Origin: an uncultured Gammaproteobacteria bacterium
GTDB taxonomy: Bacteria; Patescibacteriota; Patescibacteriia; UBA10025; JAHIVO01
Direction of reading: 5' to 3'
Length of the DNA: 64,000 bases
NCBI GenBank assembly: GCA_964415025.1
Contig: CAYPXF010000002.1
Span: 11,825-75,824 of the forward strand
Made by a program: the position numbers and the translations under genes. Below, one piece after another: positions 14,799 through 51,114 of the stretch (within the stretch, counting starts at the first letter, position 1; each line of letters opens with the position of its first letter). The notes beneath the pieces were generated by a model that was not told the origin of the DNA, did no database searches, and saw only the letters and a program-made list of their open reading frames with translations.

Positions 14799-15980
14799 AT
14801 GATTGATCATATGCGTATCAGCGCCATCCAAACCACGCGTTTTTATAAAAAAGTGATCGTCGGATTTTGTGTCGGCGTGGTGGTTGTTTTTGGTCTGATA
14901 CTGTATTTTTCTTTTTCGAAAACCATCATCACCGTGCATTTAAAACCGTACGACAGCACTACTGAATACAAGGTTATCATATCCGACAGCACCGAGCTCA
15001 ATGAGCTGGCCGAACTAGCCGCTGGTAAAGAAATTGTCCAAGGATATTTACTAAAAACCAACCTGGCTGACTCGGCGACTTATGAAAACACTGCACACGG
15101 TGAAACAATCGAGGGAGTAGCTGCCGGCACGGTGACGATTTATAATAACTGGTCGCAAACACAGCCGCTGACCGCGACTACCAGGCTTTTGACACCAGAT
15201 GGTGTGCTGTTCCGCATCAAACAGCGCGTGGATATACCGCCAGGAAGCAAACTGGAAAATGTCGAGGTGTATGCCGATCAGCCCGGCGCTAGCGGCAATA
15301 TTGAGCCGACAACATTCACCATCCCCGGATTATGGGAAGGGCTGCAGGATCAAATATACGCAGAAAGTTTTGAGCCCATGACTGGCGGCGTGGTCAAGGC
15401 TAAAGTTTTGACCCAAGAAATTATTACCGAAGGTAAACGTAGTCTGCTCGACGAGCTGAAAACAAAAGCCGCGGTAGATCTCGAAGACATAGCGCTGACT
15501 AAATACCCTGACACTGATTTTCGCAAAACACTCTACCCCATCATCTTGTCTGAAAGCGTTTCGCCAGCGGCAGGCACTATCAGTGATACCTTTACCGTAG
15601 ATCTGGAAGTAAGCTTCATCGGCGTATTTTATGACCAGGATGAAACGGTACTCATAGGCCTGGAACAACTAAAAAAAGAATTATCCGATGACGAAGAAGT
15701 CTTACGGTATACTGCTGACGGGCTGAAGGCCAGTATAGAATCATACGACTATGACAATCAGACCGCACAGCTGAATATCGATTATACAGCCAGCGTCGTG
15801 CCGCGCTTATCACATCCCATGTTCGACCGAACTAATTTAACAGGAAAAGATGAGCAGGCTATCAAGGCTTATTTTTCAAACTTTGATGAAGTGGGGTATA
15901 TAAAAATCAAATTTTCACCCTTTTGGGTGACCGAATCTCCCAGCCTGATCGACCATATTGAAATAAGGACAAGCCCATAA
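14799..15980 (+). CDS. hypothetical membrane-anchored protein
   Basis: 393-aa ORF with an N-terminal TM helix and no recognised domain. Lies directly downstream of dnaE. Confidence 0.5.
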   Translation: MIDHMRISAIQTTRFYKKVIVGFCVGVVVVFGLILYFSFSKTIITVHLKPYDSTTEYKVIISDSTELNELAELAAGKEIVQGYLLKTNLADSATYENTAHGETIEGVAAGTVTIYNNWSQTQPLTATTRLLTPDGVLFRIKQRVDIPPGSKLENVEVYADQPGASGNIEPTTFTIPGLWEGLQDQIYAESFEPMTGGVVKAKVLTQEIITEGKRSLLDELKTKAAVDLEDIALTKYPDTDFRKTLYPIILSESVSPAAGTISDTFTVDLEVSFIGVFYDQDETVLIGLEQLKKELSDDEEVLRYTADGLKASIESYDYDNQTAQLNIDYTASVVPRLSHPMFDRTNLTGKDEQAIKAYFSNFDEVGYIKIKFSPFWVTESPSLIDHIEIRTSP

Positions 15981-16009
15981 TTGACAAATAACACAGTACC
16001 AAATATAAT
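15981..16009 (+). promoter_or_regulatory. perfect consensus sigma-70 promoter TTGACA-17-TATAAT
   Basis: TTGACA at 15981-15986, a 17-nt spacer, and TATAAT at 16004-16009. It begins immediately after the stop of the upstream CDS. Confidence 0.6.
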
Positions 16010-16015
16010 TACTGT

Positions 16016-16204
16016 TGCTTTGTGGTGATTGTAGCGGCTACCAACCGCTGTGGTGCCAAACCACCCATTCTACGGGCTAAACCACGAGTCAATTTAATAA
16101 ATAAGCGGTCCGCCCCTGGCGGACAATACGGGTGGAACCGTTCGTAGATTCCGGCCTTGCCAGGAACTGCAGAACCCCAATACTGACATAGATTTGGGTA
16201 TTTT
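16016..16204 (+). ncRNA. candidate structured non-coding RNA / thrS leader element, about 190 nt
   Basis: Starts downstream of the consensus promoter. Contains a hairpin AGCGG-CUACCAA-CCGCU whose 7-nt loop shows ACC followed by A, a T-box-like motif GGGUGGAACCG at 16130-16140, GC-rich helices, and a weak terminator-like CCCAA...UUGGG+UAUUUU end. No ORF lies in the 800-bp region. Confidence 0.3.
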
Positions 16205-16620
16205 AATGTATAAATACTAACGCGTAATAAATAACAAACACTTAAGGGGAAAAGAGTTCCGGATTCACCTTTATGGCCCGAGCAAAAGTCGAAGACAGAT
16301 GTGTATTATAGAATAAATAGCACATTATAATCTCACCAACCCAGCCAATAAAACTGATTACGGACACATTCACAATAATTTTTACCCTCACTGTACTGGA
16401 TTAGAGCCTATTATTTTTATAAATAAGTTCAACTAGAAAGCAACATGTAGAGATATTTACCCGATCAAGCACTATCGTCTAACCGACCCAGACACTAACC
16501 CCCTATACGTAATAAGTGCTGAATTAATCACCAGCACTTAATCTACAATTGCCACGAAACAGTGTGGGAAACAATTTGCTGGAAAACAATAGCAGGTTTC
16601 ATAATGTCAAATAACATTCT

Positions 16621-16638
16621 AACATTCTTAAGAATGTT
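16621..16638. promoter_or_regulatory. perfect 18-bp palindrome AACATTCTTAAGAATGTT upstream of thrS
   Basis: Read directly, about 150 nt upstream of the thrS ATG. A further AACATTCT direct copy lies 2 nt upstream. Confidence 0.3.
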
Positions 16639-16785
16639 CAAGTGAATATGAATATAATAATGACATACCCGACATTTTCTACTGTTTACTGGATTCAGAG
16701 CGAATGCTTATGTATTACGGGATATTGCTTAGAAAATCCACCATTAAATACCTCGATCACATATTACTAATTATCTATTTTTTTT

Positions 16786-18504
16786 ATGAACGAACAACTC
16801 CATAAAATTCGTCATTCACTTTCCCATCTGATGGCCATGGCCGTACTGGACATGTTTCCGGACGCCAAGCTGGCTATCGGTCCGGTGATTGAAGACGGCT
16901 TTTATTATGACTTTGACCTGTCTCGTTCTCTGACGCCGCAAGACTTGCCTAGGATTGAAAAAAGGATGAAAAAACTGATCCAGCAGAATATCAAGTTTAC
17001 CAAGCTGGAAAAATCAGTTGCTGAAGCTAAAGCGTTATGTAAAAATCAACCGTACAAGCTGGAGCTTATTGACCAACTGCTAAAAAACAACGAACCGATT
17101 ACATTTTATGCGTCAGGCGAATTTATCGATCTATGCGGCGGTCCGCACGTAGACTCGTCCAAAGAAATTTCAGCAGATGGATTTAAACTGCTAAAAACCG
17201 CCGGCGCGTATTGGCGCGGTGATGAAAAAAATACCATGCTGCAGCGTATCTATGGAGTCGCTTTTACCTCAAAAAAGGAGCTTGATGACTACCTCAAACT
17301 GCAGGAAGAAATGAAAAAACGTGACCACCGCAAACTGGGTAAAGAACTGGAGCTGTATGATTTTCACGACGTAGCGCCCGGGGCGCCGTTCTGGCTGCCA
17401 AAAGGCATGGTTATGTACCGTGAACTAGAGGACCTGCTACGGAATGAACTGCGGGCAGATGAATATGAGGAGATTAAAACTCCGCAGATTTTGCATAAAC
17501 AATTATGGGAAGAATCAGGCCACTGGGATCACTACCGTGATAACATGTTCCTGGTTGAGGTAGAAAACCAGACGTTTTCGCTCAAGCCCATGAACTGTCC
17601 GGGGTCAACCTTTGTCTACCGGCGGCATAAGCGCAGCTACCGCGACCTGCCTATTCGGCTTGCTGAATTTGGACTGAATTCACGGAATGAATTATCCGGC
17701 ACGCTCGGCGGCCTGTTCCGGGTCCGCCAGTTTGTCATGGATGACGCGCATATATACTGCCGCCCAGACCAGATTCAGTCAGAGGTGCGGAAAACGCTGT
17801 CCCTAATGAAACGCGTACATAAACACTTCGGGTTTAATCCGTCCTATTACCTTTCGACTATGCCCGATGACCACTTAGGCGAGGAAAAGACCTGGCGCTA
17901 CGCTGAAACAATGCTGACCCAAGCCTTGGCAAAGAACAAAATATCATTCGAGGTCAAGGAAAAGGACGGGGCTTTTTACGGACCGAAAATCGATGTGGAA
18001 ATCAAAGACAGCCTAAACCGAAATTGGCAATTAACCACCATCCAGCTGGATTATAATTTGCCGGAACGTTTTGACCTCTCTTATACGGACGCACATGGCA
18101 AGGAACAGCGTCCGATTATCGTCCACCGGGCAATTTATGGCAGTTTTGAGCGTTTCATCGGCATTCTGGTAGAGCACTATGCCGGGGCTTTTCCTGTGTG
18201 GTTATCCCCTATCCAGGCGGCCGTACTGACGGTCGGCAAAGCACACAGCGCGCACGCCAAAAAACTGCATCAGCAGTTCCAGGAGGCCGGCATCCGCTCC
18301 GAGCTCAATGACGGTAATGACACGGTCGGCTATAAAATCAGAAAAGCCACCAAACAAAAAATTCCCTACATGCTGGTCATCGGGGATAAGGAAGCTAAAA
18401 GCGCCAAACTGCACGTACGACTTCGTGGTAAAAAAGACATCAAGCAGATGTCAGTCAGCGCGTTTATCAAGCACGTGACTGGAGAAATAACCAAACGGAA
18501 GTAA
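16786..18504 (+). CDS. thrS: threonyl-tRNA synthetase, short form lacking the N-terminal TGS domain
   Basis: Begins at the editing domain (HSLSHLM...GPVIEDGFYYDFDL). Class II catalytic core and a C-terminal anticodon-binding domain. 572 aa. Confidence 0.9.
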   Translation: MNEQLHKIRHSLSHLMAMAVLDMFPDAKLAIGPVIEDGFYYDFDLSRSLTPQDLPRIEKRMKKLIQQNIKFTKLEKSVAEAKALCKNQPYKLELIDQLLKNNEPITFYASGEFIDLCGGPHVDSSKEISADGFKLLKTAGAYWRGDEKNTMLQRIYGVAFTSKKELDDYLKLQEEMKKRDHRKLGKELELYDFHDVAPGAPFWLPKGMVMYRELEDLLRNELRADEYEEIKTPQILHKQLWEESGHWDHYRDNMFLVEVENQTFSLKPMNCPGSTFVYRRHKRSYRDLPIRLAEFGLNSRNELSGTLGGLFRVRQFVMDDAHIYCRPDQIQSEVRKTLSLMKRVHKHFGFNPSYYLSTMPDDHLGEEKTWRYAETMLTQALAKNKISFEVKEKDGAFYGPKIDVEIKDSLNRNWQLTTIQLDYNLPERFDLSYTDAHGKEQRPIIVHRAIYGSFERFIGILVEHYAGAFPVWLSPIQAAVLTVGKAHSAHAKKLHQQFQEAGIRSELNDGNDTVGYKIRKATKQKIPYMLVIGDKEAKSAKLHVRLRGKKDIKQMSVSAFIKHVTGEITKRK

Positions 18505-36812: not shown

Positions 36813-39161
36813 TTATTGCTTTAGCTTCATGTTAAATTTTTTTTCTAAGGCACTAATGACTTTGTGCCGCACCGCTTCAATTTCATCTGAAGTTAGTGTG
36901 TGGTCTGGTGATTGTAATGTCAATCGAAAGGTAGCGCTATGCTCTTTTTCTGATGGTTTTTTGTATAGCTGGCCAATAGCACGAAAATCAGAAATTATTT
37001 TGGTGTCCAGATCCTTAACTATTTTTACTATTTTTTCATAAGACGCGTCCGAAGGAGTAAAAAAAGTTAAATCCTGTAGCGCAACTGGATACCGTGATAA
37101 TCTGGTATAAACTCTTCGTTCGTTGGCAAAAGAGAGCAGTATCTGCATATTAAGCTGAAAAAATGCTTTGGGATTGCCAGTTTTACCACTTTGCGTATTA
37201 TCTTCGGGGATTATTCCACAAATACCAATCTCATTATTGTTAACACTAATCACGAATCTATTATTATCTCCCTTTATGTACTGCGCATCCTGGATAGTAA
37301 TCTGCAATTGCTGCACTAATTTCTGAATAATGCTTTTGACTTCTTGAAAACACTGGAATCTACTTCTTGTTTTATCATAAACTGTACCAGCAACAAGTAA
37401 TTGTTCATCAGGCATGCTTTGTTTATTGTAATATACGTTCCCTACTTCATATATTTTAATCACTTCTCTTTCCTGGTATTGTTCCTTGTTCCTCATAAAT
37501 AGTTGGGGCAATAAACTTACTCGTAAATACTTCTGCTCTGGATTAATTGGATTCTCAATTTCGTAATGACAAGCATCCGGCATATAGCTTCGTAATGCTT
37601 CGCTGTAAAACGAATAATTCAGCACCTCGGTCATGCCGCAGGCCATGAGGATGCGCTTGATTTTCCTTGTCCAATAAATGTGTTCAGGAATATGGGGCGG
37701 CCTAATAGCACCGATAATAGGTTCGGGCTTAATTTTGTTCCAGCCATGGATACGTCCTACCTCCTCTACCAAATCGGCCGGGATGGTCACGTCCGGACGA
37801 AACGCGGGCACGACCACGCGTAGCTGTTTGCCGGATGAGGAAATCTTGAAATATAATTTTTCTAAATACTTCTTTATCTGGCCGGCGGTAAAGGCATGGC
37901 CGATCAGACCGGAAATATACTCGGCAGTCGTAAAAATTATTGTCGGCTTTGTTTTTTTCTGCTTGGCGACAGTAATCACGCCCTTGGCGACCTGCCCGTC
38001 AGCCAGCTCGGCCATGAGCTGGGCCGCGCGGTCAGCTGCCTGCTCGGCCAATCCAGGCCACAGCCCTTTTTCAAAACGGGTTGACGCTTCGGTCACTATG
38101 CCCATCGACTGCCTGGTTTTGCGGATGGACACCGGCTTGAACAGCGCTGATTCAATCAGTACATCATTAGTCGAGGTCAGTATTTCAGAGTTTTTACCGC
38201 CGATCACTCCGGCAACAGCAATCGGCTGTTTATCATCAGCAATCACCAGCATATCCGGTTGTAGCTGTCTGGCCTCATCATCGAGGGTTATTAAGTGCTT
38301 GTCATTGCCGGCACGGCGCACCACAACTTTTCTGTTATTGACACGGTCCAGGTCAAACGCATGCAGCGGCTGGCCGTACTCCAGCATCACGTAGTTAGCC
38401 ACGTCGACAATATTATTAATCGGTTTGAGCCCGGCCGCTCGCAGGACCCCCTGCAGCCACAGCGGAGATTGACGGACATCCACACTCTTTACCACCCGGG
38501 CAGTATAGTGCGGGCACAGCTCTGGATCAGCTACCTGGATGCTGACTTCCTTATCCGCGGTAAACATTGAGCTTTGTTTAACGCTAACCTTAGGATAGGT
38601 AATGTTCCGGCCGGTCAAGGCGGCGTATTCCCTGGCTAAACCGAGTATAGAAAACCCGTCCGGCCTGTTCGGCGATACGCTAATATCCAGCACCGTATCA
38701 TTGATCTTAAGCGCCTGCGGTAACGGCTGTCCCGGCGCAGCTTCAGCCGGCAGCACCATGATGCCGCTGTGGTCGCGGCCCAGCTCGAGCTCATCTTCAG
38801 CGCACAGCATACCCTCTGACGCCGCGCCGCGGATGTCACGCTTTTCTATTTTGAGACCGTTTGGCAAAGTGACGCCAACGCGTGCTACCGGCACCTTATG
38901 GCCCGGTTTAATATTTTTGGCGCCGCAGACTATAGATAATCTGCGGCTCGTGCCTATGTCTACTGAACAGACAGTCAGTTTATCAGCATTGGGATGGCTG
39001 TCGATTGCCTGGACCTGGCCGACGATGATATCCTCCAGTTCCTTTCCCAGCGGTATGACCTGTTCTACCTCAAATCCAGTCAGCGTAAAAATTTCCGCGA
39101 CCTTGTCCGGTTTTTCTTTTACCTCGACGTATTGTTGTAGCCAGTTTAATGAAAGATGCAT
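36813..39161 (-). CDS. pheT: phenylalanyl-tRNA synthetase beta subunit
   Basis: 782 aa with tRNA-binding, B3/B4 and B5 domains. Immediately downstream of pheS. Confidence 0.9.
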   Translation of the reverse strand: MHLSLNWLQQYVEVKEKPDKVAEIFTLTGFEVEQVIPLGKELEDIIVGQVQAIDSHPNADKLTVCSVDIGTSRRLSIVCGAKNIKPGHKVPVARVGVTLPNGLKIEKRDIRGAASEGMLCAEDELELGRDHSGIMVLPAEAAPGQPLPQALKINDTVLDISVSPNRPDGFSILGLAREYAALTGRNITYPKVSVKQSSMFTADKEVSIQVADPELCPHYTARVVKSVDVRQSPLWLQGVLRAAGLKPINNIVDVANYVMLEYGQPLHAFDLDRVNNRKVVVRRAGNDKHLITLDDEARQLQPDMLVIADDKQPIAVAGVIGGKNSEILTSTNDVLIESALFKPVSIRKTRQSMGIVTEASTRFEKGLWPGLAEQAADRAAQLMAELADGQVAKGVITVAKQKKTKPTIIFTTAEYISGLIGHAFTAGQIKKYLEKLYFKISSSGKQLRVVVPAFRPDVTIPADLVEEVGRIHGWNKIKPEPIIGAIRPPHIPEHIYWTRKIKRILMACGMTEVLNYSFYSEALRSYMPDACHYEIENPINPEQKYLRVSLLPQLFMRNKEQYQEREVIKIYEVGNVYYNKQSMPDEQLLVAGTVYDKTRSRFQCFQEVKSIIQKLVQQLQITIQDAQYIKGDNNRFVISVNNNEIGICGIIPEDNTQSGKTGNPKAFFQLNMQILLSFANERRVYTRLSRYPVALQDLTFFTPSDASYEKIVKIVKDLDTKIISDFRAIGQLYKKPSEKEHSATFRLTLQSPDHTLTSDEIEAVRHKVISALEKKFNMKLKQ

Positions 39162-39312
39162 AGTGGCTTATTATTCTCTGTCAGAATATAAATGTATAAG
39201 TCATTCAGAGCGAAACGCAGTGAAGCGAAGAATCTTTATGACCTATGGCTATACTGCATAAAGATTCTTCACCCTCATTACCATTTGGGCTCTGAATGAC
39301 AGAGAATTATTT

Positions 39313-40323
39313 CTAAAACTGCTCTAGGAAACGTAAATCACCGCTATACGACAAGCGGATATCATCAATCCCGTGGTACAGCATCATCAGCCGGTCTATG
39401 CCCAATCCAAAAGCAAAGCCTGAATATTTATGTGCGTCTACTCCCATGTTCTTCAATACTGCGGGATGCACCATACCGCTGCCCAGCATTTCCAGCCAGC
39501 CGCGCTGTTTGCATACCGAACACCCCCTGCCCCCGCAAATCAAACACTGCATATCGATGTCCATGCCCGGCTCGACAAATGGATACAGTTCTGGCCGCAC
39601 CCTTGTCTTCACTTTATCGCCGTATATAGCCTTAAGAAAAGAATCAAGCGTATAAATCAAATTACTGACCGTAATCCCCTTATCAATCACTAAACCTTCG
39701 CATTGGTAAAAATTCGTCTCATGTCCGGCATCGGTCGCTTCATTGCGGAATACCCGGCCTGGTGCGATTAACCTGACCGGTGGCTTTTTGTCCGCCATGG
39801 CCCGCAGCTGTACCGGTGAGGTATGCGTGCGCATGAGCAACCCGCCCTCCACATAAAACGTATCCCAGGCGTCCCGAGCTGGGTGGTCTTTGGGAATGTT
39901 TAGTAAATCAAAATTATACTCCGGAGTTTCTACTTCTGGGCCATCTACTATCCCAAACCCCATAGACATGAATATATCCTCGACCCGCTCCATAAACTGG
40001 GTAATCGGATGCAAATGGCCGATATCTGCCGGATCGCCAGGCCAGGTCATCTCCAGCGGTGAAATAGCAGGCGCCTTGTCCGTGTCTAATTGCTGTTTTT
40101 TCTCGGCTACAGCCTGGGTAACAGCCTGCTTGACCCTATTAGCCAGCTGGCCCATGGCCGGTTTATCCTTAGGCGGAGCGTCCTTGAGCAGTTTCATGAA
40201 CTTAGCCAGTAGGCCCTTACGTCCCAAATACTTAGTTTCCAGCTTTGCCAAATCAGCCGCACTATCTGCGGCCTGAATTTGTGCTAATGCCTGTTGTCTA
40301 ACTGTTTGTAATTCCTGTTTCAT
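39313..40323 (-). CDS. pheS: phenylalanyl-tRNA synthetase alpha subunit
   Basis: Class II motifs (FRNEATDAGHETNFYQCEG, GLGIDRLMML). Confidence 0.9.
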   Translation of the reverse strand: MKQELQTVRQQALAQIQAADSAADLAKLETKYLGRKGLLAKFMKLLKDAPPKDKPAMGQLANRVKQAVTQAVAEKKQQLDTDKAPAISPLEMTWPGDPADIGHLHPITQFMERVEDIFMSMGFGIVDGPEVETPEYNFDLLNIPKDHPARDAWDTFYVEGGLLMRTHTSPVQLRAMADKKPPVRLIAPGRVFRNEATDAGHETNFYQCEGLVIDKGITVSNLIYTLDSFLKAIYGDKVKTRVRPELYPFVEPGMDIDMQCLICGGRGCSVCKQRGWLEMLGSGMVHPAVLKNMGVDAHKYSGFAFGLGIDRLMMLYHGIDDIRLSYSGDLRFLEQF

Positions 40324-42770: not shown

Positions 42771-45700
42771 TTAGCCTTTCCAACGATCCTCACAAATATC
42801 CCGGAAATCGCATGAATTGCACCAAAATCCCGGCGTGGCCGAAAAATCACTGACACGGATCTTAGCTACTACTTCTTCTAAATTATTTTTGACCTGCTCC
42901 AGGTGCTTTTCCTCGGCAGTAAAAGACAGCTTTTTATTCTTTTCAACATAGTAATAGCTTAAGAGGACGGGTTTTAATTGTAGCACATGACGAGCCGCGT
43001 AGTCATAGATCAGCAGCTGTTCCTTATCATTAGCCGCCAGCTTGCCGGATTTAGGCATTTTCCCGGTTTTATAATCTATTATTTCAACTTCTTTGTCTTT
43101 CCCGGCCGGGTCGATTCTATCGATCACGCCTTTGAAAACAGATTTAGCGAGTTTTATGTTGAACGGCTGTTCCAGGTACAGCGGTATGGGCCAGTTGTCC
43201 TTATGCGCTTCGTAGAATTCAACCAGTGACTGCTTGCCCTTGGCATAGTATTCTTCCATGTGCTGTTTGGAGAGGTACCAGTCGTCAATAAAATTCTGAT
43301 CGTACAGCTTTAACAAGTCGTCCAGGCTCGGTTTGATCGTACTTGCCCGCTTGGTATCTCGCTTACTCGCGACATTACCAAATAAATTTTCTTGCTGGGA
43401 AGAACCCTTTTCTTGTATAAGCTTAAAGAATTGAAATAACGTATTATGGATGGATTTTCCAAAGCTGAAGGTGTGGCGGCCTTCTACCGGCACTCGCAGA
43501 ATATGCGCGTATTTAAACTGCTTAGGGCACGTGGTGAACGCGCGCACCTGGGTATAGCTTGATTTGCCGGGGATGGCCTGCTGCAGCATGTCGAGCTCCC
43601 TGATCTCCTGCTGTTTGGATGCCGGCGGCTGGAGCTGATCGGCCATGTCTGCCTCTTCGGCCCCGGGCTTTTTTTCGAAGCCAAGCTCGATCAGGAAACG
43701 GGAAGGTTTTTTGGCACGGGCGCCGCCATAGTCTTCGGCAGACGTGAAAAACACCCCGTCCCTGGCCCGGGTCATGGCCACGTAAAACAGGCGGCGTTCT
43801 TCCTCGAGATGGATGTCGCCTTCGGGGATAATCTCCTTGACCAGCTCGTCCGGCAGGGCAATCGGCTCTTTGCGCTTGATCGACGGAAAACGCTTATCGA
43901 CTAAGCTCACGATAAACACGTACGGAAATTCTAACCCCTTAGCCCCGTGCACCGTCATAATGCGCACGGCTTCCGGCCCCTCTTCCATTTGCTGGCGCAA
44001 CGAGCCCCGCTCGCCTGCCGCCTTGGCCTGGTCCAGCTGATACAGAAAATGTTTGACGGTGGCATCCTCCTCGACCGCCTCAAACTGCTCGATCTCCCGG
44101 AAAAACTGGTTCAGATGGATTATTTTTTCGAAATTTTCTGGTGTATCTTTCTGGGTGATATGCTTGAGATATCCTGAATCCTTCATAAACCGCAGGGCCA
44201 GCGGCAGGGCGCCCTTGGCGCGCGCCAGCTGGGTATGCTTTTCGATCATACTGCGAATTTTGTCCAAAGCCTGGTGCATTTCCTGGGGCAGGCCCGGAAT
44301 AGCCCGTGACTGCTGGACTGCTTCCCACAGGGACATACTTTTGCGCCTGGCATAGTTTGACAGCCGCATCAGCCCGTCAGCCGGCATGTTCCAGTGGGGC
44401 AGGTTCAGCACCCGCCACAGGGCCGGCGATTCATGGTAATTATCCAGCATTTTGAGATACGAAACGACATCCATTATCTCCGGCTGGTAATACAGGCCGG
44501 ATGAAGCCAGGAAATGGTGCGGTATGTCATAGCGAGACAGGGCGGTGATAAATTCCTGGGCATAGTTATTAGCCCGCACCAGAATAGCAAAGTCGCTCCA
44601 TAATAATTTTTTGTCTTTTTTCTTCAGCTCGATGATTTTCTTGACCACGCCCGCGGTTTCCTCGGTATGCGATTTGAAATGCAGATGGTGGATAATCCCT
44701 TCATCACCCACGTGTGATTGTAATTTTTTGGAAATTTTACTTTCCAGGGGAGCGCCCTTGTCCCCGATCTGGCCGTTGGACAGTTGGTATTCCAGGCGGT
44801 TGGGATCGTTTTGTTTGATAAATTTATAGGCCATGTCCAGAATATTCTGTTTGGTGCGGTAGTTTTCCGTGAGCACGATTTCTCTGGACTGGGGAAAATC
44901 TTTTTTAAACTCGAGAATATTAGAGATAGCCGCGCCGCGGAATTTGTAGATAGAATTGTGCACTACTACATCATCAGCAATATAATTATGGGTACGCTCT
45001 ATTTCCAGGTCATATACCGCTTGTTTTTTCTTATGTTCAGATTTTTTTATAACTCGTTCATACTCGATATTGTGGCCGCATTTTACCGGAATAAAATGTC
45101 CAGGCAATACATTACCAGCCGGCATGACCAGAGCTGGCCGGTGCTGGTACTCAATCCGGCCTGCAGTGAACCTATTTTCGACAATACCGCCGGTGATGCG
45201 CCGTAATGTGTTGCATATCTGCCCTGCTTTCCTGATGTCGCTTGTCTGTATACGGAGCCGGTAACCTTTTTTACTGGGAGTAAGCTGATAACCGGCCTGT
45301 TTTATTTTCTGGAGAATAAATGTATCTGATGTTTCGATAGTTACCGCATGAGCAATAGCTGGATACTTCATAACAGGGCGTTTATTTTTAACATGATCTT
45401 TGCTGCGGTACTTCCGGTAACACATGTCTAGATATATTTTCACTCGGGATTTTCCGCCCCGTTTAACCCCTTGGAGCGCATAATGATATGCCTCCAAATC
45501 AATGTCTAAATCAGCTGCCAGATGCCGTACTGCCTGTTCTGTATCTATTTCATGGTATAGTTTTTCAAGCCATGAGTCAGTAATAGCTGCGCCGTCCCTT
45601 TTCTGGAAACAGACTGACGGAATACCATACCGCAACGCATAGTATACTTCCCAATACCGCGCTTCCTGTTCTGTAGTATACGCACTAATACCGATAATAT

Positions 45701-46886
45701 AATCAGCAGACCGTTCCAGCCGCAGCCGGCTGGCTATGTCATTTGTAATACCGATCCGCCAGCCAAATCCGGTTCGGTACATCAAATACACGTAATAACA
45801 AACATGCTGTGTATCTTTGCGCGGGACGTAACAAAAAAACTTGTGATTTGCCGTTGCAGTAATGCGTTTGCCTGATGTGGTAGTAAGTGTTACCAGTTTC
45901 GCATGTTTAGTATTTTTCATAACACGAGCAACCCTAGAAACGCCTATATGACCTTTACCCACGGCAGTCAATACCCTATCCCCTTTTTCGACCCGATCAA
46001 TGCGCCTGAGGCCTTGTTCCAGCTGGATTGTTGAATTACCGGGGAGGCACTGGTCGTCGTCGCCAACTACTGTCACGTTGTTGGTCGGCGCGGCCAGCAT
46101 TTTGACTAATTCGTACTGGGCGTAATTCGTGTCCTGGAATTCATCGACCAGGATGTATTTAAATTGCCCTTGATATTTTTTCAAAATCCTTGGCCGGGTT
46201 TTGAAAAGTTTGATAGTATACAAAATCAAATCACCGAAATCCAAAGCGCTTTTGTCCAGTAATAACTGCTGGTAGGTGTGGTACGCGTTAGCTACTTCGA
46301 TCATACGTTGGTCTTCGGAAATCTCATCGTCATCGTCTCCTTTTTTCTTCAGGAACTTATCGTCATCCCTGTCCAGCTGGATTTTTTTAGCGTACTCAAT
46401 GTATTCGTCAGGCATGATACCCTCGTCCTTGACCCGGGAAAAGTGCCGGACTAGCGCCTGGATAAACTTGGTCGGATTGCCGAGCGGCCGGTAGTAATCC
46501 AGATCAAACGCGTCGAAGTTTTGGCGTACCAACAGCATTTGTTCGGTCTCATCCAGTAAAGTATAATCCGGCGGCAAACCGATCTCCAGAGCATTATCGC
46601 CCAGGATACGGTCGCAAAACGCGTGAAACGTAGACACCCACAGATCCACATACCCATACGGCAGGAGCACATCCACCCGCTCCTCCATTTCACCGGCGGC
46701 TTTTTCTGTAAACGTCAAGGCCAGGATATTATCGGTGCTGATTTTTTGCTCAATGATAAGCCAGGCCAAACGCTGGGTAATGACCGTGGTCTTGCCCGTA
46801 CCCGCTCCGGCCACTATTAAGAGAGGTCCTTTGCCAAACTGGACGGCCTTTTTTTGCGCGTCATTGAGATTACCGGCAATATTCAT
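42771..46886 (-). CDS. UvrD/PcrA-family ATP-dependent DNA helicase with a C-terminal Cas4/AddB-like PD-(D/E)XK nuclease domain; contains an intein
   Basis: Helicase motifs (GAGTGKT, VDEFQDTN, VVGDDDQ | SIYKFRGA, TVHGAKGLEF). C-terminal IIDYKTG and CNSCDFRDIC. The start is taken at MNIAGN..., directly behind a TACAAT box. Confidence 0.9.
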   Translation of the reverse strand: MNIAGNLNDAQKKAVQFGKGPLLIVAGAGTGKTTVITQRLAWLIIEQKISTDNILALTFTEKAAGEMEERVDVLLPYGYVDLWVSTFHAFCDRILGDNALEIGLPPDYTLLDETEQMLLVRQNFDAFDLDYYRPLGNPTKFIQALVRHFSRVKDEGIMPDEYIEYAKKIQLDRDDDKFLKKKGDDDDEISEDQRMIEVANAYHTYQQLLLDKSALDFGDLILYTIKLFKTRPRILKKYQGQFKYILVDEFQDTNYAQYELVKMLAAPTNNVTVVGDDDQCLPGNSTIQLEQGLRRIDRVEKGDRVLTAVGKGHIGVSRVARVMKNTKHAKLVTLTTTSGKRITATANHKFFCYVPRKDTQHVCYYVYLMYRTGFGWRIGITNDIASRLRLERSADYIIGISAYTTEQEARYWEVYYALRYGIPSVCFQKRDGAAITDSWLEKLYHEIDTEQAVRHLAADLDIDLEAYHYALQGVKRGGKSRVKIYLDMCYRKYRSKDHVKNKRPVMKYPAIAHAVTIETSDTFILQKIKQAGYQLTPSKKGYRLRIQTSDIRKAGQICNTLRRITGGIVENRFTAGRIEYQHRPALVMPAGNVLPGHFIPVKCGHNIEYERVIKKSEHKKKQAVYDLEIERTHNYIADDVVVHNSIYKFRGAAISNILEFKKDFPQSREIVLTENYRTKQNILDMAYKFIKQNDPNRLEYQLSNGQIGDKGAPLESKISKKLQSHVGDEGIIHHLHFKSHTEETAGVVKKIIELKKKDKKLLWSDFAILVRANNYAQEFITALSRYDIPHHFLASSGLYYQPEIMDVVSYLKMLDNYHESPALWRVLNLPHWNMPADGLMRLSNYARRKSMSLWEAVQQSRAIPGLPQEMHQALDKIRSMIEKHTQLARAKGALPLALRFMKDSGYLKHITQKDTPENFEKIIHLNQFFREIEQFEAVEEDATVKHFLYQLDQAKAAGERGSLRQQMEEGPEAVRIMTVHGAKGLEFPYVFIVSLVDKRFPSIKRKEPIALPDELVKEIIPEGDIHLEEERRLFYVAMTRARDGVFFTSAEDYGGARAKKPSRFLIELGFEKKPGAEEADMADQLQPPASKQQEIRELDMLQQAIPGKSSYTQVRAFTTCPKQFKYAHILRVPVEGRHTFSFGKSIHNTLFQFFKLIQEKGSSQQENLFGNVASKRDTKRASTIKPSLDDLLKLYDQNFIDDWYLSKQHMEEYYAKGKQSLVEFYEAHKDNWPIPLYLEQPFNIKLAKSVFKGVIDRIDPAGKDKEVEIIDYKTGKMPKSGKLAANDKEQLLIYDYAARHVLQLKPVLLSYYYVEKNKKLSFTAEEKHLEQVKNNLEEVVAKIRVSDFSATPGFWCNSCDFRDICEDRWKG
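44955..46049 (-). other. intein (365 aa) inserted in helicase motif III between DDDQ and SIYKFRGA
   Basis: Begins CLPGNSTIQL, has block B TATANH, and ends VVVHN followed by S. The extein motif VGDDDQ/SIYKFRGA is reconstituted on removal. Confidence 0.8.
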
Positions 46887-46990
46887 GATGGTATTGTAGC
46901 ATACAAAAAGCATTGACAAAAAGTTTATTAGCACGCTCCAATGTATCAATACTAAAATAGTATTTTGTTTTCTTACATAAAAAAGAAACG

Positions 46991-49591: not shown

Positions 49592-49660
49592 AGGTACTAC
49601 TTAATTTCTTCAAGCGTACCCTCGACCCAGGCGTCTAATGCCAGGTGGCGAGCTCAATCT
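49592..49660 (-). repeat. remnant copy of the 3' end of the Cas4-like nuclease gene (about 88% identical to 51927-51985)
   Basis: Translates to AWVEGTLEEIK then a stop. Matches the ...AWVEGTLEEIKQC C-terminus of the 51839-52591 gene. Confidence 0.5.
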
Positions 49661-51021
49661 ACCCGATACGGCGCGATAGGCGTATGCCGACTCTTTCCTG
49701 ATTTGGCAAACCGTGCATAGTGCTTGCGTATTATGCGCAATGCTGCCGCGTTGTCTTTGGCCACATAGATATTGTCCGTATCATGCGGACTGATATAGCC
49801 GGCCTTCACCGGATGCTTTTTTATCCAGGCATATAATGCTTCCCACATGTTTCCGATCAGAATAAGGGGAATAGAGCGGACATGCTTTACCTGGGTGAGC
49901 TGCCACGCGTAAAAGAATTCCAGACACGTCCCCACGCCGCCCGGCATGACCACGACCGCGCCCGACAGAGCCATGAAGTAATCCAGCCGGTGCGAAAATT
50001 TATCAAATTCCTTTTTTATTTCCAGATGGCCGTTGTCCTCAATCTCCCAGGGCAGCCTGATCCGCAATCCCATAGAATCTGATTTATTATCCGTGTCACC
50101 GGCCGCGTGCCCGGCGTTGGCGGCCATCATCAGGCCCGGACCGCCGCCGGTCACGATGTCGATATGCTGTTCCCCGATAGCTTTGGCCAGAGCAAACGTC
50201 TGCCGGTACAGGGTGTCGTTTTTCCTGATCCGGGCTGATCCGAATATGGCCACGCGGAATTCACGCTTGTCCAGCTCTTGTCTCATCCTTTTCTCCACCA
50301 CATCATTACGCTCGAGCCATGCTTCGGCTTCGGTAATGATGGCGCGCATCATGCGCACCGATTCGACCGGGTATGTGCCGATAGCCGTCTCTTCAGACAG
50401 CATCACCGCGTGCGAGCCGTCAAACACCGCCGTAGCCACGTCATTGACCTCGGCGCGAGTGGGCTGCTTGCGGGCAGTCATGGAAAGTAGCATTTCCGTG
50501 GCCGTGATGACGAGCTTTTGTTTGATCAGCGATTTCTTGGTAAATTCTTTTTGCAGGGCCGGCACTTCCGGCAATGTAACAGCATTGCCCAAATCACCGC
50601 GCGCGATCATAATGCCGTCGGCAGCGTCCAGGATCGCATCAAAATTTCTAACCCCGGCGCTGGTTTCAATTTTGGCGATGACAAAACACCCGGGCAGGGC
50701 GTGGCGCACCGCCGCGATCTGATCCGGGCGCTCGGTGAAGGACAGAGCGATGTATTTGATCTTATGGTTGCGGGCATACGTTAGCGTGTCCAGCTCCTTG
50801 ATATCCAGCATCACGCGGATCTTATTCCTGGTCTGCACCTGCTTCAGATTGCGCAGAATGCGGTCGTATTGCCGGCTATCCCCGTATGCCGTGTTGATAC
50901 GGATAAAATCAATGCCTTCCCGCGCCATTGCCCGGAAAACTCCGAGCTGCAGACTGGCCGGTCCAATAGTGGCGATTATTTTTGTTTTGATCTGCCGCCG
51001 CGCCTTTATTGATTTTTTCAT
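49654..51021 (-). CDS. fusion protein: pyruvate-kinase A-domain core (no B or C domain) fused to a LOG/TIGR00730-family domain
   Basis: PK motifs KIIATIGPAS, KIETSAGV, MIARGDLG, SEETAIGTYP. LOG motifs AIFGSARI, IVTGGGPGLMMAANAGH, PGGVGTCLEF. The start ATG lies 6 nt from a TATACT box. Confidence 0.75.
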   Translation of the reverse strand: MKKSIKARRQIKTKIIATIGPASLQLGVFRAMAREGIDFIRINTAYGDSRQYDRILRNLKQVQTRNKIRVMLDIKELDTLTYARNHKIKYIALSFTERPDQIAAVRHALPGCFVIAKIETSAGVRNFDAILDAADGIMIARGDLGNAVTLPEVPALQKEFTKKSLIKQKLVITATEMLLSMTARKQPTRAEVNDVATAVFDGSHAVMLSEETAIGTYPVESVRMMRAIITEAEAWLERNDVVEKRMRQELDKREFRVAIFGSARIRKNDTLYRQTFALAKAIGEQHIDIVTGGGPGLMMAANAGHAAGDTDNKSDSMGLRIRLPWEIEDNGHLEIKKEFDKFSHRLDYFMALSGAVVVMPGGVGTCLEFFYAWQLTQVKHVRSIPLILIGNMWEALYAWIKKHPVKAGYISPHDTDNIYVAKDNAAALRIIRKHYARFAKSGKSRHTPIAPYRVD

Positions 51022-51114
51022 GACTTTAGTATACCAAAACCCCGCCCGCCGCACGAGCCACGCTCCCGAGGTGATACCGGCGGAATGGATTATAAAGATT
51101 AATATTAGCAGCAG

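Follow-up and report, generated by a model that had tools for sequence, protein, structure and literature searches.

A probable compact T-box leader upstream of thrS in Patescibacteria

For the reading of one RNA by another, T-boxes serve as the textbook example. In class I T-boxes (RF00230; e.g., the Bacillus subtilis thrS, tyrS, and glyQS leaders), which lie 5' of aminoacyl-transfer RNA (tRNA) synthetase genes, a cognate codon followed by a purine is displayed on an internal loop with an S-turn in a long Stem I; further 3' come an RRRNG-Stem III-AA arrangement, a 7-nucleotide (nt) UGGNACC bulge between helices A1 and A2, and a terminator that competes with A1 and runs into a U-tract. An intermediate or "ultrashort" Stem I is a feature of translational T-boxes, which are mostly actinobacterial and then depend on Stem II (PMC7583486). 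The class II ileS leaders of Mycobacterium and Nocardia (Sherwood et al. 2015, described in PMC7583486 and PMC11297988) have no platform for the tRNA elbow and keep the discriminator logic; they sequester the Shine-Dalgarno sequence and rely on a long Stem II that carries an S-turn, together with a IIA/B pseudoknot. Another kind of control operates at the thrS operator of Escherichia coli, where feedback on thrS also runs via a leader RNA and involves Thr anticodon/codon recognition: its loops are anticodon-like, it binds the threonyl-tRNA synthetase (ThrRS) protein, and it overlaps the ribosome-binding site. Here, we describe a leader of about 190 nt 5' of thrS, at 15981-16204 of a 64,000-nt stretch of contig CAYPXF010000002.1 (assembly GCA_964415025.1; this whole stretch is called the window hereafter and all positions refer to it), from a member of the Patescibacteria or candidate phyla radiation (CPR). 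Judged by sequence comparison, this leader is very probably a transcriptional T-box riboswitch of thrS, specific for tRNA-Thr.

Conservation and architecture of the leader

The loci of relatives (numbered L below) were fetched through the 393-amino-acid (aa) protein encoded directly 5' of the leader, and it is the comparison with them, rather than any single-sequence test, that gives the leader its significance. The 9-mer GGTGGNACC alone is not significant (one match against 0.99 expected by chance), and the + strand folds modestly better than shuffled sequences (z = -2.0; minus strand, z = -0.31). A covariance model of 140 positions built from 28 relatives, i.e., from a set that leaves the window out, matches the window along its full length (positions 1-140 of 140; 16004-16139, +) with 86.4 bits (E = 2.8e-18), as the single match in 64 kb. 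Across the CPR loci, the same model scores its 28 seeds and the window at 71-100 bits and finds as extra members L145 (69.7 bits), L165 (60.7 bits), and then L149 and L156 (47 and 40 bits), with weaker matches to L110 and to leaders of the canonical type described below. The compact family has at least 31 members. On 80 thrS loci of other phyla, the model gave only weak matches, to ordinary T-boxes.

The helices P1, Stem I, and Stem III covary strongly across these relatives. In a MAFFT alignment of the 29 compact leaders (28 relatives and the window), P1 and Stem I together are paired in 86% of cells (30-46% when the partners are slid), and double changes occur at every one of the 15 pairs. 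The covariation score is 0.82, against at most 0.19, and none of 500 shuffles attained 0.82. Taken separately, P1 is paired in 80.6% of cells with double changes at all nine pairs, and Stem I in 94% with compensatory changes at every pair. A model-fitted alignment of 37 sequences, which leans towards the structure, gives 84% for P1, 94% for Stem I, and 98% (with double changes) for the three outer pairs of Stem III, together 90% with a score of 0.83. RNAalifold run on the MAFFT alignment recovered Stem I only; P1 and Stem III were specified by hand and tested by pair counts.

At gathering thresholds, Rfam finds nothing in the 64-kb window or in 20 relatives. A permissive scan of 15900-16850 yielded RF00230 (17.3 bits, E = 0.23) at 16092-16153, over model positions 148-216, a partial match that spans the linker, Stem III, and the T-box/antiterminator. 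No other Rfam family matches the leader region, and scanning the entire window permissively turned up no additional RNA.

The 5' part of the leader is a small decoding domain (Table 1). P1 pairs the nucleotides directly 5' of the junction strand GAUUG with those directly 3' of CUAA, and Stem I begins directly after GAUUG, a strand that is replaced by CAACUG or GAAUG in some of the extra members found with the model. A note made earlier from the letters alone had described the specifier hairpin as a 5-base-pair (bp) stem with a 7-nt loop, CUACCAA, that presents the Thr codon ACC followed by A; loop and codon stand (ACC at 16040-16042, then A16043), and the stem has to be corrected to six pairs, including one U-G. 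The loop measures 7-10 nt across the family, ACC occurs in all 29 seed loops with A as the next base in 28, and ACC-A is also found in the canonical-type CPR relatives. The P3/P4 region forms two abutting hairpins in 21 of the 29 members, against a median of ca. 4% of shuffles (mean z = -2.5), and the sequence of their loops is not conserved among members. P1, Stem I, and these two abutting hairpins thus make the decoding domain a four-way junction that P1 closes. One compact-type leader (L156:4251-4534) shows ACA, also a Thr codon, in its specifier loop; this is a synonymous switch among Thr codons and would imply tRNA-Thr(UGU) as the ligand.

The discriminator that follows P1 is canonical. 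Its elements are, in order, (Y)CAAUU (frequent), a linker rich in A, RAGNG, Stem III, the invariant AA, three nucleotides, and GGGUGGAACC. In the window, AAGCG stands 5' of Stem III as the RRRNG or "RAG" element; the aligned members have RAGNG, and this RRRNG-Stem III-AA arrangement is the one defined for T-boxes (PMC7778990, PMC11297988). The T-box motif GGGUGGAACCG follows at 16130-16140 and places UGGA within the 7-nt bulge of a conserved antiterminator. The contiguous 3' strand of A2 and A1 is present in 28 of 32 members against about three expected by chance, and A1 covaries (GGG/CCC, AGG/CCU, AGA/UCU). Helix A2 of the window carries an inserted 28-nt hairpin (16144-16171), with the same insertion in L088. 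A lineage-specific extra antiterminator hairpin is likewise known as "stem Sa" of staphylococcal glyS (PMC9177973); the insertions of 28-29 nt in the window and L088 share with it the location within the antiterminator and are unrelated in position and sequence. The long hairpin at 16140-16175 was considered as an alternative (sequestrator) helix and rejected, as L088 and the family show it to be an extended A2 that is present in both conformers.

The 3' strand of A1 also opens the terminator hairpin, and it does so in the relatives too, with a U-run after it; the distance from the end of the hairpin to the thrS ATG 3' of it is 17-58 nt in about 11 of them. Terminator and antiterminator are mutually exclusive in the window, both using the CCC of A1. 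The terminator conformer is the minimum free energy (MFE) structure at -37.1 kcal/mol, and the constrained fold with the antiterminator reaches -34.5 kcal/mol.

Several further observations of the earlier note are borne out by position and count. It had seen an exact TTGACA/17 nt/TATAAT promoter right after the preceding stop codon, and this promoter matches the consensus at 12 of 12 bases, is the sole such site within 15000-17500, and begins at the base after the TAA (15978-15980) of the 393-aa open reading frame (ORF; 14799-15980). Its GC-rich stretch of about 190 nt 3' of the promoter is real (GC = 0.54 at 16025-16174, 0.31-0.41 in the flanks), as are its T-box-like motif at 16130-16140 and its weak hairpin with a U-tract. 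It had also placed thrS as the next gene some 600 nt on, across an AT-rich, ORF-free stretch; the start lies 587 nt past the terminator. A promoter of at least 8/12 is present in 26 of the 29 family members, with the -10 element ending about 16 nt 5' of GAUUG, and because of this fixed distance we place the beginning of the transcript at P1; in the window, the transcription start is predicted at about 16016-16018.

Table 1 Features of the thrS leader and its surroundings in the window
Feature	Position	Strand	Sequence or remark
Sigma-70-type promoter	15981-16009	+	TTGACA 15981-15986, 17-nt spacer, TATAAT 16004-16009; 12/12 match
P1, 5' strand	16018-16026	+	CUUUGUGGU; pairs with 16081-16088; covariation
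Junction strand between P1 and Stem I	16027-16031	+	GAUUG; invariant in 29 seeds, partly by selection
Stem I (P2) hairpin	16032-16050	+	UAGCGG 16032-16037 / CCGCUG 16045-16050; loop CUACCAA 16038-16044
P3 hairpin	16051-16063	+	UGGU-GCCAA-ACCA; completes the four-way junction with P4
P4 hairpin	16064-16076	+	CCC-AUUCUAC-GGG; completes the four-way junction with P3
Junction strand	16077-16080	+	CUAA; C.AA invariant
P1, 3' strand	16081-16088	+	ACCACGAG; covariation
Linker	16089-16107	+	U-CAAUU 16090-16094, A/U-rich stretch, AAGCG 16103-16107; aligns to linker and AGuG of RF00230
Stem III	16108-16124	+	GUCCGCC-CCU-GGCGGAC; matches Stem III of RF00230
AA after Stem III	16125-16126	+	Invariant
Antiterminator	16130-16178	+	A1 GGG 16130-16132 / CCC 16176-16178; bulge UGGAACC 16133-16139; A2 GUUC 16140-16143 / GAAC 16172-16175
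Intrinsic terminator	16176-16204	+	Hairpin CCCAA...UUGGG 16176-16198, CCC common to A1; then UAUUUU 16199-16204
Spacer	16205-16785	+	AT-rich, ORF-free; between leader and thrS
thrS	16786-18504	+	572-aa ThrRS; Pfam tRNA_SAD, tRNA-synt_2b (class II core), HGTP_anticodon

Following the established T-box mechanism (PMC7583486, PMC7778990), from which tRNA binding, the U73 discriminator base, and regulation itself are inferred, we envisage that transcription starts at about 16017 and that the first ~70 nt fold into the compact decoding domain, where Stem I would display ACC and the following A on its 7-nt terminal loop. The codon would pair with the GGU anticodon of tRNA-Thr, and the discriminator (AAGCG, Stem III, AA, and the UGGAACC-bulged antiterminator) would then test the tRNA's 3' end. 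An uncharged 3'-UCCA end would pair with UGGA and stabilise A1 (GGG/CCC); A1 would withhold CCC from the terminator stem, and RNA polymerase would therefore read on towards thrS. By the same analogy, UGGA predicts U73 in tRNA-Thr. A charged tRNA could not stabilise A1, the slightly more stable terminator would form, and transcription would stop at the U-tract.

Canonical leaders in more distant relatives

The gene order in Patescibacteria is conserved: ftsW, dnaE, the gene for the 393-aa protein, a gap (with the leader), thrS, and a miaB-like gene, and most of the CPR loci that extend far enough have thrS 3' of the 393-aa gene. About 45 distinct loci have UGGAACC in the gap between these two genes. 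Leaders of a canonical type, with AGAGA, the distal loop GGCUGAAAGCC, and an internal ACC-A, are carried by the more distant relatives (ThrRS 41-47% identical) and include full-length RF00230 alignments (L132, 68.4 bits, E = 9e-13; L154, 44.7 bits). The shorter, compact type is that of the window and of the relatives closer to it (ThrRS identity up to 68%), among them L093 and L094, which align to RF00230 with 34 and 32 bits and with most of Stem I deleted. Because canonical T-boxes occupy the same position in more distant CPR lineages, we suggest that the compact form was derived from the canonical one by reduction. Among the possibilities raised in the earlier note, a divergent T-box-like leader is the one that the data support, through the partial RF00230 match, the full-length RF00230 alignments of relatives, the covariance model, the covariation, and the antiterminator/terminator pair.

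Set against class I, the leader has in common with it the cognate codon followed by a purine, the RRRNG-Stem III-AA arrangement, the 7-nt bulge between A1 and A2, the terminator in competition with A1 and its U-tract, the place 5' of an aminoacyl-tRNA synthetase gene, and orthologous CPR loci with full-length RF00230-like leaders. It differs in having no long Stem I, in carrying the specifier on a terminal 7-nt loop instead of an internal loop with an S-turn, and in its 5'-terminal P1, within which Stem I and two small hairpins lie, the whole forming a four-way junction. The class II ileS leaders, which resemble it in having no elbow platform, differ in amino acid (Ile versus Thr) and phylum, and where they have a long Stem II, the CPR leader has two short, variable hairpins. 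On sequence grounds, it is very probably a compact T-box variant specific to Patescibacteria, in which Stem I is truncated and an S-turn-bearing Stem II is lacking, yet the output is an intrinsic terminator.

The distribution of the leader is uneven. Many CPR loci with gaps of less than 130 nt have no T-box. In L090 (4158-4997; ThrRS 60% identical), there is no leader, an apparent opposite-strand ORF (read by eye) fills the gap, and thrS has a TATAAT of its own. ThrRS of about 572 aa without an N-terminal TGS domain is typical of this lineage, i.e., of the window and its relatives. A ThrRS search of genome contigs was saturated by conserved peptide patterns; the best match listed was 56% identical, and none of those listed was a close relative. 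The 393-aa protein (14799-15980, +) shows only faint baseplate-J similarity and is conserved across Patescibacteria, between dnaE and thrS in the loci examined; the named members of its family come from the Patescibacteria group or Candidatus Kerfeldbacteria, and its nearest homologues are about 50% identical.

Counter-evidence and rival explanations

A number of points weigh against a transcriptional T-box. The leader reaches RF00230 with only 17.3 bits, against a gathering score of 93, and in the 3' third of the model alone. It has no distal platform of Stem I (AG bulge, distal loop) for the tRNA elbow; Stem I, a hairpin of 6 bp that covaries, terminates in the specifier loop, and the RF00230 alignments of close relatives delete the platform part. 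A Stem II S-turn is lacking too, since neither of the short hairpins P3 and P4 has an internal loop, and an equivalent of the IIA/B pseudoknot is not evident. Glycine T-boxes have neither the IIA/B pseudoknot nor the Stem II S-turn. A K-turn at the base of Stem I is not evident: GYGAUUGA on the 5' side is similar to the canonical GCGAUGA, no 3' strand containing GA comes after Stem I, and the conserved CUAA faces GAUUG across the four-way junction in its place. ARAGORN detected no tRNA or tmRNA gene in the window or in 60 CPR loci and thus no tRNA-Thr from which U73 could be read. The terminator of the window (-5.2 kcal/mol) is the weakest of 29, the median of the relatives being -10.9 kcal/mol, and thrS starts 587 nt past it, beyond a spacer without detectable function. 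Finally, transcriptional T-boxes generally require a long, platform-bearing Stem I (PMC7583486).

As for the frequent (Y)CAAUU, it follows P1 in about 20 of the 29 members; GAUUG is invariant, so that a pairing between the two gives no covariation signal. We set this GAUUG:CAAUU pseudoknot aside, given the lack of covariation and a distance of 0-1 nt from the P1 3' strand to CAAUU that looks sterically incompatible with a P1 of 8-9 bp. A pairing of CAAUU with sequence 5' of P1 was rejected because the conserved promoter puts the transcript start at P1.

The spacer contains no + strand ORF of more than 42 aa and no Pfam match in six frames, gives no fold signal (z = -0.97 in a structured-RNA test), shows no similarity to the relatives' loci (blastn against all loci), and is free of + strand promoters that match at 9/12 or better. 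In relatives where the gap is long, a gene occupies it, i.e., Maf in L088, NUDIX in L099, L101, and L112, and D-Tyr-tRNA deacylase in L118, L121, L124, L130, and L140; tested as a pseudogene of these Maf, NUDIX, or deacylase (DTD) genes, the spacer shows no trace of them (tblastn, E no lower than 0.05). It may be an insertion that has decayed completely. At 16621-16638 it holds a perfect palindrome of 18 nt, AACATTCTTAAGAATGTT, and Logan contigs of SRR7048225 and SRR7048227 end or start exactly there; it could be an operator site or merely an assembly-breaking repeat. The deacylase gene under a Thr T-box and in one operon with thrS, at five loci, is a notable pairing in itself, and in L124, as also in L130, a gene of the "23S rRNA-intervening sequence protein" family is found between dtd and thrS, 3' of the T-box.

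It is conceivable that the element is a T-box by descent that no longer regulates thrS, either through constitutive read-through of an eroded terminator or because an unrecognised promoter in the spacer now serves thrS and the leader yields a short terminated RNA. The exceptionally weak terminator, a spacer as featureless as decayed sequence is expected to be, and L090, which lost its leader altogether and gained a TATAAT before thrS, are all in line with such decay. We nevertheless regard it as unlikely for the window, given that the decoding and discriminator domains score like those of the relatives over the full length of the model, that the promoter is perfect, that the terminator conformer is still the MFE structure, 2.6 kcal/mol below the antiterminator and hence a workable switch, that the spacer lacks a promoter at the threshold given above, and that several relatives also have 500-800 nt, gene-filled, between leader and thrS. 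A functional T-box remains our preferred reading, with the qualification that the weak terminator and the 587 nt of ORF-free sequence before thrS make for a long 5' untranslated region on read-through transcripts and possibly leaky control. Control in this genome may be leaky, and the switch may be on its way to loss, as in L090.

A translational T-box, in which the alternative helix would sequester the ribosome-binding site as in the actinobacterial ileS leaders with an ultrashort Stem I, has in its favour that a short Stem I bearing the specifier on its tip has so far been described for translational T-boxes (PMC7583486). It is very improbable here: the alternative helix is a hairpin with a U-run in the window and in the relatives, and it cannot sequester the thrS ribosome-binding site, given that 587 nt separate it from the start codon in the window and that the start codon of the relatives lies 3' of the U-run. 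Least credible of all is an independent small RNA or a ThrRS-binding tRNA-mimic operator, possibly on the minus strand, both floated in the earlier note. In their favour are a promoter and terminator of the element's own, far from thrS in this genome, and a minus-strand loop (UUGGUAG) resembling the tRNA-Thr(GGU) anticodon loop. Against them, the minus strand folds no better than shuffles, and every conserved motif, including the T-box motif and RAGNG-Stem III-AA, stands on the + (thrS) strand, as do the promoter and the U-tracts. On that strand, unlike in the E. coli operator, the loop shows a codon and not an anticodon and is accompanied by an acceptor-pairing T-box bulge and a terminator. 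In the window, about 740 nt separate the element from the start codon, no tRNA-like gene is detected by ARAGORN, and the same element ends shortly before the thrS ATG in the 11 or so close relatives mentioned above.

Implications for T-boxes and for the CPR

Elsewhere in the window, there is no T-box 5' of pheS/pheT (36813-40323, -; upstream to 41478), where small ORFs are found instead. Two minus-strand genes are unusual in themselves: 42771-46949 encodes a UvrD/AddA-like helicase-nuclease of 1392 aa whose sequence an intein interrupts (Pfam Intein_splicing and Hint lie between its helicase domains), and 49654-51054 encodes a 466-aa protein that combines a partial pyruvate kinase barrel with a LOG ("possible lysine decarboxylase") domain, an unusual fusion.

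We put forward, with some reserve, that the compact leaders form a third architectural class of T-box, one that is transcriptional and presents its codon on a 7-nt loop in a P1-closed junction joined to a standard discriminator, with neither elbow platform nor S-turn. If this is true, the elbow contact would be dispensable for co-transcriptional T-boxes, or would be replaced via the GAUUG/CUAA junction or the A-rich P3 loop. In the current view, the platform lets transcriptional T-boxes capture tRNA quickly enough, and a truncated Stem I is tolerated only in the slower translational ones, which make up for it with Stem II (PMC7583486); the compact family offers a direct test of this platform rule for transcriptional T-boxes. 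At about 190 nt, the compact leader is also a minimal scaffold for structural work and engineering.

For annotation, 15981-16204 should be entered as a thrS T-box leader and not as a small RNA gene. In the literature that we searched, we found no paper that joins T-boxes with the CPR, Patescibacteria, or Parcubacteria, although others may exist; the leaders described here indicate that tRNA-sensing riboswitches exist in the candidate phyla radiation. None of these CPR thrS leaders reaches the Rfam 15 gathering score of RF00230, even the canonical-looking ones (L132, L154, L159, and others) standing at 32-68 bits, and because that threshold misses all these leaders, T-box regulation is probably under-annotated in the reduced genomes of the CPR.

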